A DNA stretch of 64,000 bases, taken from positions 84,382,001 to 84,446,000 of the forward strand of contig OX597827.1 in the NCBI GenBank assembly GCA_951406725.2, written 5' to 3'. Below the pieces are notes generated by a model. That model saw nothing but the letters and a program-made list of their open reading frames with translations. It was not told the DNA's origin and ran no database searches. The position numbers and the translations under genes are program-made. Within the stretch, counting starts at the first letter, position 1, and every line of letters begins with the position of its first letter. Shown piece by piece: positions 7,828 through 64,000 of this stretch. The stretch comes from Octopus vulgaris. Taxonomy: Eukaryota.

Positions 7828-7951
7828 ATATATATATGTATATATATATATATATATATATATATATATATATATATATATATATATATATATATATATA
7901 TATATATATATATATATATATATATATATATATATATATATATATATATAT
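7828..7951. repeat. (TA)n microsatellite
   Basis: Directly visible; one of many long TA tracts. Confidence 0.95.
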
Positions 7952-8201
7952 TAGAAAAATTGAGGTAATCAGATCAGATGGTTCATATTTGTAGATATTT
8001 ATTTATATATTACATTTTTTACATATATATCATATCATATCATTCGGATTTCGGATTAGCGCTTGCTCCCATTCTAGTGGGCTTTTCAAATATATATATG
8101 TATATATATATATGTATATATATGTATGTATATATATATATATGTTAGTTACTGCACGCATTTTTTTCTCTCCTTCTTTCTGTGTTTTTTTTCTCTGTGT
8201 A

Positions 8202-8239
8202 TCTTTCTGTTGAAGAGCGTAGGCTCGAAACGTAAAAGA
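8202..8239 (+). ncRNA. Variant minimal hammerhead-ribozyme-like motif
   Basis: TCTTT-CTGTTGA-A-GAGC(GTAG)GCTC-GAAAC-GTA-AAAGA. Stems I and II pair; the core has A6->U and stem III is reduced to an ACGT palindrome. Confidence 0.5.
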
Positions 8240-8759
8240 CTTGTTTTATTTATATTTCCTGAGCGCCATACTAATACAATTGTTTGTTTGTTTTCCACCT
8301 GCCTTCGTCTTTTGTCTATTTTCATAAAGCTTCCCGTTATATATATATGCCTTCCCATGTGCGCGCTTATTTCTGTCATTTGTCCAGAAGTCAGAAAAGA
8401 GATAATTCTAAAAGAATTTTTGAGCGGTTATACTTTTATATATTCGAGTAGTATATACTTCATGAATCCATATAATCGGTCAGGAAAGTATCGTTGGTTT
8501 TGCGTCTGCTATTACACAGGGCAATATCGATGACTCATCAGACTTGCTGGCCGGAGTCACAGCCTCCTTACTGATGGAGCTAAACTTACTGTCTTGGTCA
8601 GTTTGGCGATGAAAAGAACCGAAACGATTAAAGATCTTCTTCTGAGATAGAAAGAAGAGTTGTCTCCTCTTAGTACAGTCCTAGTTGTGGCTGAAGTGCG
8701 TCAGCTGTGTCTGCGTACGTTTTTTCCATTCTCTGCTTCACAAACGGGAGAAGGCAGCT

Positions 8760-9600
8760 AAAAATTTCACTTTCTGAATTCAAGAAGGCGTCCGGATCGT
8801 GCGAATTTTTTTTAGGATCGGTCTCCTCTCAGCTAAGCAAAGTTTGCACCGTCTGCTTCCGTTGAGGTATATCCCAGGTTGTTCCAGCAGCTCCCTGTTA
8901 ATTTTATATGGTGTTTCCCCTGCTTTTAATCGCTATACATAGCGATTTGTATGGCGGAACATTAAAGTTGTAACGTTGCACCTGCTCGCTATCCGAAAAG
9001 AGGATCTGGTTATTTAGCCTGGCCTTAAATGGGCTCTCTGTTGCTGCAGCATATTACTGTGCCTGTTCCTTTCACTGCGGCTGCGTATGTTGGACACTAT
9101 CCGTGCTTCGCAGAGCACGGCCTCAACGTTGCATCAATCATTCACAGGGCATTCAGCGTTAACCCTATATCAGCAACCTGCCTCTACGCGGGTTTGGAGT
9201 CTTTCTGAACGATATCCTTATATCTTTTGAATAACCTATACATACGTATGGGGCTGTGTAAAATGCTTGTCTACTAATCTAAGGAAGGTTGCTTGCACGT
9301 CAAAACCTGCGTTGTGAGGGTCTATATACATCCTCTAAAAGGCACAAAACAGTCTTCTGCTAGTTGTACAATTACAAGAAATAAGCGCGCACATGGGAAG
9401 GCAACCTCACCCAATCCAGATGGTATAAACATTTCTGAGGGCTGGCATAAATGGTCTGAGGTAGCTAAGAGTTCCGTGGGAAAACGGATGTGAGCAGGAT
9501 TTCGAGAAGAAAGCCACCAATTACAAAGTTACCAAACAAGCCAGCGAAAAAAAGGGTTAGAAGGTTTGGGTATTTTCGGTTAAAATTGATTGCAGGGGTT
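8760..9600 (-). mobile_element. Highly degenerate Penelope-like element relic (post-RT region and GIY-YIG C-terminus)
   Basis: Minus-strand translations ...IGGFLLEILLTSVFPRNS and YKINRELLEQPGIYLNGSRRCKLCLAERR resemble the PLE motifs IG..FL.L...FP.N and C.LC..EK. Confidence 0.55.
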
Positions 9601-10926
9601 TCCCGGAGGATGTTGGTTCTATCAGCAGCAGAAAGTGAGAGGAAAACAGCTAGACGCAGGTGGAGGGTCGGGTGAAAGGAGCATGTTGCTGGTTTTGGAA
9701 CAAGCAGAAGTTGAACTGGAAACCAAGAGACAGTGGGCAGAGACTGGCTTTCACTGCTGACCCGTTGATGGAGGATGATGTTGTTTAGGAAAGAAATACA
9801 CAAGAAAAGCTGGTCACGCCCTGACGACCACGACAACAACAACAACGACTTTTTCTCCTGGTCAAAAACCACAGCCATAAGTGATTGAATCTGTTGGCAA
9901 CTCTGTGTGTGTGTGTGTGTGCGTATATATGTATGTGAGTATGCGTGTGTACATACACATGCACAATTAGTTACATTCATTCACAGAGCGTCGATATGTC
10001 TATTGCTATAGAGATGACGAACAAGAAGTCGTTCGAGGGGAAGAGGTGCAAGTGAGAGGAGTGAATAGTCACACACACTCACACATACACATATAGACAT
10101 TTGTTTTGAATGCTGTTAGTGGTGGGATTATTTGCCGACACAAAACGAATTGTGTTGTTCCTACAACTGTATCTCTGCACAACCCCTTTAGGTCGATGTT
10201 CGTTAGCCTTGGAAGCAGATTCCCTTCTCACCTTTACACCTCGTATAGCAATTCTATTTAACAAAATGTAAACATCTGCACAATTGATTCCATATATGGT
10301 GTTCCTATCACGTGGTTTGTTTCAGATGTGTGGCTTCATGCGTTATTCCAGGATTCTGTCACAGGAACAGAATCATACAAGAGCATCGTCAAACATTAAA
10401 TTTGTTTTGTTTTTCTTCCACAAAATATACATCGAAAATAGGGATGACAAATGTGCGCCGGTAAATATGGGATGTATGATATAATAGAAGACATCTGGTG
10501 ATCTGTGTCAGCAAAACATGTATTAATTAGACAAAACTACAAAAAATTACAGCGAAATTTCCGTGGAGAATGGAGTGTCCGATGTTTCGGACTGTTTTTC
10601 TTCAGTTTCTCAAAAATGGTGTCTGTAAAACCATACTCATTTCTTTTATTTCCCTGCTGCTATCATTACTCTGAAGGGACCACCCTCCGAAATACCGACT
10701 GTTCTACTCCCCACAACGAGTTCACTGGACTCTGTACTCTTTTAGTTGCTTTTCCACGCATGCACACACACACACACACATGCAAATTTATATATATATA
10801 TATATATATATATATATATATATATATATATATATATATATATATATACAAATAAGAAAATGGAAGAACAAATTCATTTCGATCATCAACTTACAGATAT
10901 TACAATTTCATATTATTTATTAATTA

Positions 10927-61849: not shown

Positions 61850-63420
61850 CGTTTAATACACGTCACCTGACTCAGAGATCGAACACCGAACCACATAATC
61901 ATTTTTCAAGCCCAAACCAACAAAAAAGACAAGACCGGCCAACAACAAGAAAATCAATGCTATCGATCTGTAGCTAAACGAAATGAAAGTTCCCAGCGAG
62001 ACTACAGGTAAAGCTTGATAAATCCAATCACCCCTCAAATCCCTATCCAAAAATTCTATGGGAACAACTGAAAACCGCCATTCTACAGACGTCTGCAGAA
62101 ATCCTTGTGTTTACGAAGAAAAAGAACAAGGATTGGTTTGATGAAAACGATTTATTAAAGAAGGAATTATTAAAGACAAGGTCCCCCCCCCCCACAAGCA
62201 CACCTGGCATAACCGACCTGCCTCGAGCAGAAAGTGGCCTTCAGCCAAGCCAGCAGCTTTCTGCAGCACAAACTCTGTGAAATTCAGAAAGAGTGGCGGA
62301 CCAACCTCGCACGGAGAACCCAGCTGTGCGCTGACTCTGGTGATTACAGGGTGTTCTATGAAGCTCTCAAAGCAGCCTACGGTCCAACACATCAAGTCCA
62401 GAGTCCCCTGCGCAGTTCAGATGACCAGGCACTTCTCACAGACACAACATCCATCCTCAGCCGTTAGTCTGAATACTTTCAGGCCCTCTTCAGTGCAAAC
62501 CGAGTTGTCTAGGAAAACGCAATCCTCCACATCCAGCAGCAATCAATCAGAATGGAACTGGATGAGTCGCCAACCCTGGAAGAGAGCACAATTGCCATAG
62601 GCCGGCTGAAGAGTAGAAAGGCAGCAGGAGAGATGAAAGCATGCGGTTCCTGTCATACATGCTAAACTCCATCAGCTCCTCGTTGCATGCTGGGAACAGG
62701 GCAAGCTGCCACAAGATCTCCGCGATGCCGTCATCGTAATACTGTACAAAAACAAAGGGGGAAATCAGACCGCTCAAAATACCGGGAGAATCACCCTGCT
62801 TTCCACTGCAGGAAAAGTTCTTGCAAGACTTGTTCTGTCCATCGCCGAACATCCATCTTCCAGAAAGCCAATGTGGTTTCAGAGCCAACAGTGGCACAAC
62901 AGATATGGTTTTCATTCTCAGGCAGCTTCAAGAAAAGTTCCGGAGAAGAACAAACCACTTTATGTTTACGTCTGTACATCTGACGAAAGCGTTCGACTCT
63001 GTGAGCAGGAGAGGTGTGTGGCAGATCCTAAACCAAATTCCTAACCAAGATCATTCAGCTTTACGAATACCAACAAGGACAAGTCCACCTGAACAGCGAC
63101 ACATCACAGCCATTCTCCATCAACAACGGCGTGATGCTCAAGCAGGCCACTGCTGACATCGACTTTGAAGACAGGGTCTACATCAGGTACCGTCTGGATG
63201 GCAGTCTTTTCAATCTCCGGCGCCTACAGGCCCACACCAAGACTCAAGAGCAACTGATCCGAGTCTTTCTCTTCGCAGATGATGCTGCACTTGTCGCACA
63301 CACAGAAGAGGCCCTGCAACACATCACCTCCTGCTTTTGCAGAGGCTGCCCAGCTCTCCAGACAAGAAATAAACTTCCAAAAGACTGGCGTCCTACAATA
63401 ACCAGCTCCTCAGGAGGAGG
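61850..63420 (+). mobile_element. Degenerate RTE-clade LINE
   Basis: KNKDWFDEND, FYEALKAAYGP, LPESQCGFR, HLTKAFDSVSR, IRYRLDGSLFNLRRL and LFADDAALVAH; many frameshifts. Confidence 0.92.
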
Positions 63421-63510
63421 CAAGATTCGAAATAAAAGGGGGAAAAATAGCCGAAAATGAAAGATTAAAAAAATATAACCCATTATGCCGGACGCTCAAT
63501 CTAAGCGTGC

Positions 63511-63636
63511 CCCTTTGATGCCAGTCTGAAGAGGTGTCCCTCTAATGTTCAAAAGCGCAAACATTATGTAAGTTTTCACGTGGAACTTTTACGTGAATTG
63601 GCACCGAAACACTTAGAACTGGTCATTAAGGATGGG
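63511..63636 (+). ncRNA. Degenerate hammerhead-like motif
   Basis: ccagt-CTGAAGA-ggtgtc...ggcacc-GAAAC-acttaga-actgg. Stems I and II pair, but the NUH cleavage triplet is lost. Confidence 0.5.
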
Positions 63637-63915
63637 ATAAACACTTTTTTTGCTTTCTTATTTATGATGGATGGATAGATTATTGCTACAAATATAGATG
63701 CATATTCATACACATATATACTCACACATATATACTCACACACACACACACACATATATATATATATATATATATATATATATATATATATATATATATA
63801 TATATTTATTGATAAAACGGTAAGATAACAAAAGAAAGAAAGAGACCTCAATATTATGTAAATAGAGGAAATTTATCTATACAATATGTTACATTACTCG
63901 GTAGTCAAGATAAAA

Positions 63916-64000
63916 CTCTGAGTTTCAGATGCCGAAGAAATAGCCAGATAACCGAAGAGATGGTGTTGTGGATTTCCACTTCGGCATCTGAAACTCAGAG
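63916..64000. repeat. Inverted repeat running off the window end, containing a hammerhead-like motif
   Basis: 63916-63937 is the exact reverse complement of 63979-64000; gataa-CCGAAGA-gatg...catc-t-GAAAC-tcagag. Confidence 0.8.

Follow-up and report, generated by a model that had tools for sequence, protein, structure and literature searches.

The 64,000-nucleotide (nt) stretch of Octopus vulgaris contig OX597827.1 analysed here (the window, to which all coordinates refer) is a eukaryotic sequence with a G+C content of 40% and no N, crowded with microsatellites (262 tandem-repeat rows). It carries eight inserts, named a to h, together with relics of Penelope-like elements (PLEs). These mutually unrelated short elements combine type I hammerhead motifs with head-to-head mirrors in or beside microsatellites, and quite probably they arrived by separate insertions carried out by Penelope-like enzymes. 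Insert c copies more than one full length of a closed 355-nt unit, a feature missed in the preliminary description of the window, which had listed seven of the eight inserts.

Hammerhead motifs and fold-backs of the inserts

Four of the seven listed inserts (c, d, f and h) are fold-backs with unequal arms, in agreement with the number claimed previously. In insert f, a short inverted arm (34617-34852, minus strand, 236 nt) contains a hammerhead; it ends in a (TA)n tract, at a point where the element itself is rich in AT. The long arm (34863-35246, plus strand, 384 nt) adjoins (TA)n and has its hammerhead box at 34957 and its predicted cut after 35030. The hammerhead is complete in each arm, and the mirror is made of 236-nt arms around a 10-nt spacer with one difference (a transition at a CpG), the long arm exceeding it by 148 nt. 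Insert d (19678-19929, about 250 nt between (TA)n tracts, listed without strand) ends in a terminal palindrome of 34 + 1 + 34 nt (19861-19929). No hammerhead was found in it by any hammerhead scan of the window, and as it has no polarity marker its polarity is presumed. Insert h (63803-64000, also listed without strand) is a head-to-head pair formed by an inverted copy (63937-63803) and a direct copy which starts at 63938 and is cut by the window end. Its arms (63916-63937 and 63979-64000) enclose a spacer of 41 nt; its hammerhead has a C4 core and a helix I which is completed only by using the mirror copy. The mirror of the fold-backs ends at a TA tract, and the outer flanks are unmirrored and unique on both sides. 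A 36-codon ATG frame seen by eye at the 3' end of f, a candidate start of a terminal-repeat open reading frame (ORF), was too weak and was not used. A 350-nt element whose head resembles a tRNA when read by eye occurs twice, at 34169-34517 and 59847-60193, with 90% likeness between the two; the copy at 34169-34517 stops at the TA tract on the left side of insert f.

Self-comparison revealed no inverted copy in inserts a, b, e and g. Insert a (8144-8337, plus strand) is a short PLE-type end fragment bordered by a TA-rich tract at the left and (TA)5 at the right, without fold-back. Its dimer-type type I hammerhead (8202-8239, predicted cut after 8234) has a helix I of 5 base pairs (bp), a helix II of 4 bp and a palindromic helix III, and its core is changed from A6 to U. 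Insert b (10849-12418, minus strand) is a piece of about 275 nt (12418-12220 plus 10924-10849) between two (TA)n tracts, in which a hammerhead core is reduced to its 3' half (12321-12310, minus strand). It is neither short nor a fold-back because the piece is interrupted by a mariner transposon of 1295 nt (10925-12219, minus strand) with 39-bp inverted ends (10925-10963 and 12181-12219) and Pfam matches to HTH_48 and Transposase_1; this mariner is separate from the hammerhead elements. By eye, a second and older relic of Tc1/mariner type lies at 14270-15170, where the scanned frames gave no Pfam match. Insert e (20392-20571, plus strand) has a complete hammerhead (20470-20549), lies between CA and TG tracts with no (TA)5 closer than 439 nt, and is not folded back. 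Insert g (about 63440-63690, plus strand, boundaries approximate) was absent from the preliminary list and is the eighth insert; its hammerhead has a long helix I, a helix II and a decayed helix III.

The inserts were compared against themselves and pairwise with each other as 11 pieces. They are mutually unrelated, as had been stated before: the best match covers 21 nt (E 5.6e-4), and this match, between b and c, was not accepted as kinship.

The hammerhead is complete in three of the seven listed inserts (c, e and f), near-complete in h, mutated in a, reduced to one half in b and missing from d. Chance levels were estimated with 500 shuffles of the window in which microsatellites were kept in place, using a descriptor written after the motifs had been seen and PMC4209133 had been consulted. 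Four complete motifs were observed, three of them independent as f is counted twice through its mirror, against a shuffle mean of 0.032 and a maximum of 1. Complete hammerheads are above chance in the window. Dropping the helix I requirement gave 5 motifs (mean 0.82, maximum 4), and the combination of box, helix II and GAAAC gave 6 (mean 0.48, maximum 5). An earlier and different descriptor, run against 30 shuffles, gave 1, 2 and 5 matches at 0, 1 and 2 allowed core mismatches (means 0.07, 0.53 and 3.1), so that partial or relaxed cores alone are not above chance. The earlier statement that most inserts contain whole or partial cores consequently stands for the counts given above, but not for d, nor as an excess of relaxed cores.

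A first scan limited to loops II of at most 40 nt returned one unrelated candidate and none of the cores of the inserts. Candidates at 4487, 13561, 30935, 54032 and 62493 were discarded as likely chance matches, with incomplete helices and no insert context. No hammerhead family was present among the best 150 of 235 Rfam matches in the window; the top matches were microRNA (miRNA) models that stayed under their gathering scores and fitted hairpins and microsatellites. The miRNA-model matches are mostly caused by microsatellite fold-backs at 7234-7317, 20288-20391, 23434-23546, 36790-36848 and 52559-52646, in which a TG tract faces a CA tract over a short spacer and some of which pair a few unique bases. 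A 15-bp inverted repeat with a 5-nt spacer was also seen at 43494-43528, beside a short CA run and about 200 nt from the nearest TA tract. At 53455-53823 lies a degenerate tandem array (unit of about 23 nt, 70-77% alike), with a lone hammerhead-like first box near 53828 and no second box.

The hammerheads of the window display traits of the PLE type, namely an extra base after A9, a palindromic helix III and the U3-A8 variant, the last known from Schistosoma PLEs (PMC4209133). In the same source, the minimal hammerheads of metazoan PLEs are described as thousands of heterogeneous single motifs per genome, with pairs on opposite strands at distances of 100-700 bp, and a model with a circular template is offered. 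Our motifs resemble them by the unpaired base after position 9, the palindromic helix III, a helix I of 4-6 bp, the many unrelated single motifs, the opposite-strand pairs at such distances and the U3-A8 variant. They differ in that several loops II are long (40-60 nt) and that U3-A8 and C3-G8 coexist in the family of insert c.

Six of the seven independent cores of short inserts lie within 260 nt of (TA)5 or longer, against a background of 24% (binomial p 0.001); for the cores found by scanning, the count is four of five (p 0.014). When CA/TG tracts are included, 46% of all window positions lie within 260 nt of a tract, and a position beside a dinucleotide tract hence carries little weight here. 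The previous placement of short inserts in dinucleotide tracts is thus upheld as proximity to (TA)5, whereas adjacency to CA/TG is uninformative and the insert placed at 10850-12415 is mostly mariner. Inserts b, c, d and f have (TA)n on both sides, and target duplications are unreadable within TA tracts.

The 355-nt family of insert c

Insert c is composed of a long copy (19091-19474, minus strand), whose 384 nt represent 1.08 units of a head-to-tail unit of 355 nt (32 of 33 overlap positions match at this period), and of an inverted copy (19475-19630, plus strand, 156 nt) which adjoins (TA)n. The two are joined head to head with a 4-nt microhomology at the junction, and, measured along the unit, the end of the inverted copy lies 47 nt beyond that of the long one. 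The arms 19091-19199 and 19475-19583 present one difference, a transition, in 109 positions, and the arms 19399-19474 and 19555-19630 are identical over 76 nt with a spacer of 80 nt. The hammerhead (19303-19258, minus strand; predicted cut between 19264 and 19263) has a U3-A8 core, a helix I of 6 bp extending into a long rod, a helix II of 3 bp and a palindromic helix III. The unit has a G+C content of 45% and no recognisable ORF. The one long frame of c gave no Pfam match, and insert c gave no GIY-YIG match with the profile of the PLE relic homologues described below.

Parts of 18500-19930 are present in at least 20 public runs (12 studies, 5 organism labels), half or more of its words in 7 of them; none of the runs is recorded as RNA. 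Contigs from four runs (X1, X3, X4 and X13) were aligned to 19205-19555, which was chosen because it contains both junctions of c without internal repeats. As 695, 482, 270 and 32 contigs were recovered in the four runs, c belongs to an abundant family. A joint from 19205 to 19475 on opposite strands was found in all four runs, and the loose ends behind 19474 run on into the mirrored unit (X3). The crossing at 19398/19399 shows no dip in depth and no loose end among those listed, and contigs with a variant at 19397 extend beyond it by up to 30, 30, 18 and 31 letters in the four runs. Taken together, these three links close the 355-nt loop. One contig of 285 nt (X13) spans 19245-19427 and was not counted as evidence of transcription. 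The predicted circular fold of the unit has an energy of -115.9 kcal/mol, against -87.4 +/- 6.6 kcal/mol for 100 shuffles (z -4.3), none of which was as stable.

The aligned contigs also contain two changes in the core, at 19297 (U3 to C3) and at 19292 (A8 to G8), with nearly equal depths in X1 (50240/50707) and X13 (813/822) and less even ones in X4 (162/1174) and X3 (1161/14115). Family c shows in this way a putatively compensatory change between U3-A8 and C3-G8. The U3-A8 core is dominant in X3 and the C3-G8 core in X1. The window base at 19525 is absent from the aligned contigs of X1 and X13 and present in those of X3 and X4. The balance of subfamilies differs from run to run, a hint of recent, lineage-specific spread. 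In X1, two further joints on the same strand (19236 to 19495 and 19279 to 19490) correspond, in terms of the family, to head-to-head inversions at other sites.

These features make insert c a likely member, as predicted from its sequence, of the non-LTR retrozymes (LTR: long terminal repeat). Published elements of this kind have units of 150-450 nt with type I hammerheads, are expressed as circles in coral, mussel and axolotl, and are proposed to have PLEs as helpers (PMC7229834; bioRxiv 10.64898/2026.07.22.740005). Insert c shares the unit length, a 45% G+C content, one type I hammerhead, the lack of LTR and ORF, a self-paired predicted circle and the presence of PLEs in the same genome. It differs by its atypical core and because, instead of a multi-unit array, a dispersed copy of 1.08 units lies in a TA tract together with an inverted copy; neither inverted copies nor microsatellite targets of retrozymes are described in the available portions of the two sources, the word 'inverted' occurring nowhere in PMC7229834 and once in the preprint. 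The MRC1 and other non-autonomous Chlamys elements (PMC8557442) resemble c in deriving from PLEs without being autonomous, in having head-to-tail copies and in targeting microsatellites; they differ in belonging to green algae, in targeting (CA)n/(C)n and in being mostly devoid of canonical hammerheads, according to that source. A metagenome scan with a 34-nt motif of c gave no match. Judged by titles and the beginnings of abstracts, none of the papers listed in searches on octopus hammerheads, retrozymes and non-autonomous PLEs describes family c; Repbase and Dfam may already list such families, and supplements may bear on the point.

We give about even chances to the full proposal, in which c would stem from a 355-nt circular-RNA retrozyme that is abundant and recently active, is written into (TA)n by a Penelope-type enzyme and switches its core between U3-A8 and C3-G8, the other hammerhead inserts being perhaps further mini-families. 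The family probably depends on borrowed Penelope enzymes and may be propagated as a small circular RNA. Several observations limit the evidence for family c. At the closing link (19398/19399) the shorter side spans 29 letters, two under the 31-letter rule, and 79 loose ends lie beyond those listed. In X3 the depth of G8 far exceeds that of C3, and the covariation is therefore not clean in every run. Each inversion joint of X1 comes from one low-depth contig with sides of 28 and 26 letters and a likeness of 85, and is less reliable. The inversion of c itself (19474/19475) is bridged by none among the 32 pieces listed, 1474 more lying beyond these.

A less probable, though still serious, interpretation is that every insert, c included, is a truncated autonomous-PLE end. 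The closure of c would then reflect how often terminal repeats are joined in tandem, and neither an independent non-autonomous family nor a circular RNA would exist. Partial tandems are standard for PLEs (PMC8557442), and the c locus has just 1.08 units and one hammerhead; the tandem link is common in the family, and arrays could not appear in contigs so short. Truncated autonomous-PLE ends are the simplest reading for a, e, f, g and h. In the case of c, many contigs from several runs have the link from tail to start at one fixed position without a dip in depth, whereas random truncation would scatter it. The missing GIY-YIG and Pfam matches and the rod-like predicted circular fold also speak against truncated ends.

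Mobilisation of animal retrozymes by PLEs has been proposed from co-occurrence and sequence kinship, the mechanism remaining to be shown (PMC7229834; bioRxiv 10.64898/2026.07.22.740005). If the retrozyme reading of c is right, its more-than-unit length, head-to-head mirror and TA target would be direct structural evidence for such mobilisation, and an abundant closed 355-nt unit with PLE insertion marks makes the helper proposal testable.

Penelope-type relics and the probable source of the mirrors

The window contains a relic of a coding PLE, as announced in the preliminary description. The PLE relic (8348-9376, minus strand) is 5'-truncated and comprises the end of the reverse transcriptase (RT) region, a cysteine linker, a GIY-YIG domain and a 3' untranslated part ending at (TA)5; its coding part (9334-8723, minus strand) is one frame with 8 stops. 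At its 5' side, an inverted copy of its own 3' end (9377-9403, plus strand, 27 nt, 27/27 identical) is joined head to head, so that a coding PLE in this sequence shares its head-to-head arrangement with the short inserts. A HMMER (phmmer) search with the relic gave 22 matches (best E 2.2e-12), and a profile built from 21 of these 22 homologues found the relic again at E 1.4e-24. Two longer homologues carry RT motifs, the cysteine linker and a GIY-YIG-type C-terminus; as the relic is truncated upstream of the linker, the RT core is visible in the homologues only. Pfam returned no GIY-YIG match for the relic and one weak match among the 16 homologues scanned (E 0.023), and none of the 225 candidates of a word-based protein search was significant. 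On these sequence grounds the relic is assigned to the endonuclease-positive (EN+) PLEs. From its linker, it may belong to a Neptune-like clade. Of the two GIY-YIG relics claimed at the outset, this one is firm, whereas the second is weak: it is a probable, older and frameshifted relic at 57790-58240 (plus strand), with motifs recognised by eye and a profile match at 57919-58239 (E 0.02). A possible decayed hammerhead was seen in the 3' untranslated part of the first relic (8552-8478, minus strand; near 8540-8490 by eye), with its first box intact and the second altered; strict scans did not recover it.

The layout of relic and inserts is compatible with published PLE insertions. PLEs typically form partial tandems, have a 5'-truncated copy in inverted orientation and a tail at one end, and favour (TA)n (PMC8557442); head-to-head inverted copies are the most frequent arrangement, and junction palindromes and self-priming have been proposed (PMC3846280). 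With the EN+ PLEs bearing a cysteine linker (Neptune, Nematis and Hydra; PMC8557442, PMC3846280), the window shares 5' truncation, partial tandems, the inverted 5' copy, unequal 3' ends, junction palindromes and (TA)n, and the relic has its C-terminal GIY-YIG after such a linker. Differences concern the tail, described as 30-40 bp against arm differences of 47 to about 180 nt here, the junction palindromes, which are of 18 and 38 bp in PMC3846280 against the 236-bp arms of insert f, and the absence of coding sequence from the short inserts. The general layout is mostly known PLE biology, and family c is the interesting new part. The layout had been presented as poorly described, an impression contradicted by PMC3846280, PMC8557442 and PMC4209133. 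In Octopus vulgaris itself, the repeat annotation reports 31 recently active Penelope-like families, with no mention of hammerheads or palindromes in its main text (PMC13282606).

Separate insertions by Penelope-like enzymes would proceed as follows. A PLE protein with RT and GIY-YIG domains would nick (TA)n and copy an RNA from an internal start near the 3' end of the element, a step modelled on the literature. Copying would then halt early, which would leave the observed structure, an inserted end of 150-400 nt with its hammerhead. The complementary DNA (cDNA) end could fold back through a few matching bases and copy itself until a TA-like sequence is reached, which fits best d and f with their short spacers (1 and 10 nt). 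Alternatively, a second cDNA primed off the opposite strand could anneal to the first, as is possible for c and h. Either route would give a head-to-head mirror with unequal arms at the 5' junction. Insert c probably derives from a non-autonomous family, and its length of more than one unit is what copying from a tandem or circular RNA would produce. In vitro, a lizard PLE protein cleaves AT-rich DNA, extends both strands and initiates internally (PMC11167929). The preliminary proposal of microsatellite-associated PLE-type retroelements, with fold-back or template-switched reverse transcription as the likely source of the mirrors, is retained. Inversion junctions with spacers of 1 to about 80 nt could discriminate fold-back from twin priming, a choice left unresolved in PMC8557442.

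Against separate Penelope-type insertions of hammerhead elements stand the lack of a hammerhead in d, the position of e outside TA tracts and the half core of b. The short inserts gave no match with the two relics of the window, and no autonomous partner is tied to any of them. A simple fold-back fails for c, with its 4-nt microhomology and 80-nt spacer, unless a template switch or two cDNAs are added, and c alone, one insert in eight, was checked in outside data. The idea of one single system is not supported: the families are unrelated, one insert is mostly mariner and another has no hammerhead.

The hammerhead was also thought to take part in palindrome making. In its strongest form, this idea supposes a ribozyme-driven class of elements, in which self-cleavage makes the RNA end used for priming or fold-back and the hammerhead itself generates the palindromes. 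A hammerhead is indeed present in three of the four fold-backs, and the compensatory core change in family c suggests that cleavage matters somewhere in the cycle. However, neither insert ends nor inversion points coincide with the predicted cut site in any of the six inserts where the site is recognisable; the sequence runs through it. As the copies run through the cut site, their RNA template would have been uncut, or else re-ligated, and the junctions were not fixed by cleavage. The inversion joints of X1 vary, lying 15 to 28 nt from the cut site on one side, the palindrome of d has no core, the cores of a, e and g have no palindromes, and catalytic hammerhead mutants had no effect on insertion in vitro for one PLE (PMC11167929). 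A role of self-cleavage in making the palindromes is thus not supported, and we regard a ribozyme-driven class as very unlikely.

Hardly more credible, and if anything slightly less so, is an origin of the fold-backs as TA-targeting DNA transposons of the miniature inverted-repeat transposable element (MITE) or foldback type, or from the repair of hairpin-capped breaks where (TA)n forms cruciforms, with hammerhead DNA included by chance. TA is also the target of Tc1/mariner-type elements, a mariner lies within b, and d has no hammerhead. Yet fixed-length terminal inverted repeats at both ends, a trait of MITE/foldback elements, were not found: the arms are unequal in c, d and f (by 148 nt in f and about 180 nt in d) and the mirror does not reach both ends. 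The polarity relative to the core is head to head in all three fold-backs where it can be read (c, f and h), and elsewhere family c is linear-circular and not palindromic in the four runs.

The lowest probability, with the explanation regarded as extremely unlikely, goes to assembly or library artefacts, that is, fold-back chimeric reads beside TA tracts. TA tracts are hard to assemble, the inversion of c was not seen among the contigs listed, and in three of the five pairs the arms are identical. Arguing against an artefact, the mirror ends at a TA tract with unique flanks beyond on both sides, the arms of c and of f differ by one transition each, similar inversions occur in the short-read contigs of X1, and the layout fits published PLE insertions.

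Other repeats of the window

Three further RT relics, at 2522-3538 (minus strand), 46025-47150 (minus strand) and 62145-63415 (plus strand), match Pfam RVT_1 (E 2.5e-22, 1.1e-24 and 3.7e-5, respectively); they are of the long interspersed nuclear element (LINE) type and by their look are not PLEs. Directly upstream of the second one, an imperfect (GAA)n of about 740 nt (47158-47900) yields long spurious open frames. A family of about 200 nt, whose members are 72-88% alike, was found at 15351-15497, 17330-17934, 24774-25152, 37051-37963, 39217-39617, 40863-41021 and 41665-41788. It often forms rows of 2-4 units beside (AAT)n and resembles short interspersed nuclear elements (SINEs); no hammerhead was found in it. 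A second short interspersed family, 73-80% alike and mostly ending in TA/TG tracts, occupies 4840-4984, 23565-23687, 27954-28136, 31042-31461 and 33963-34098.

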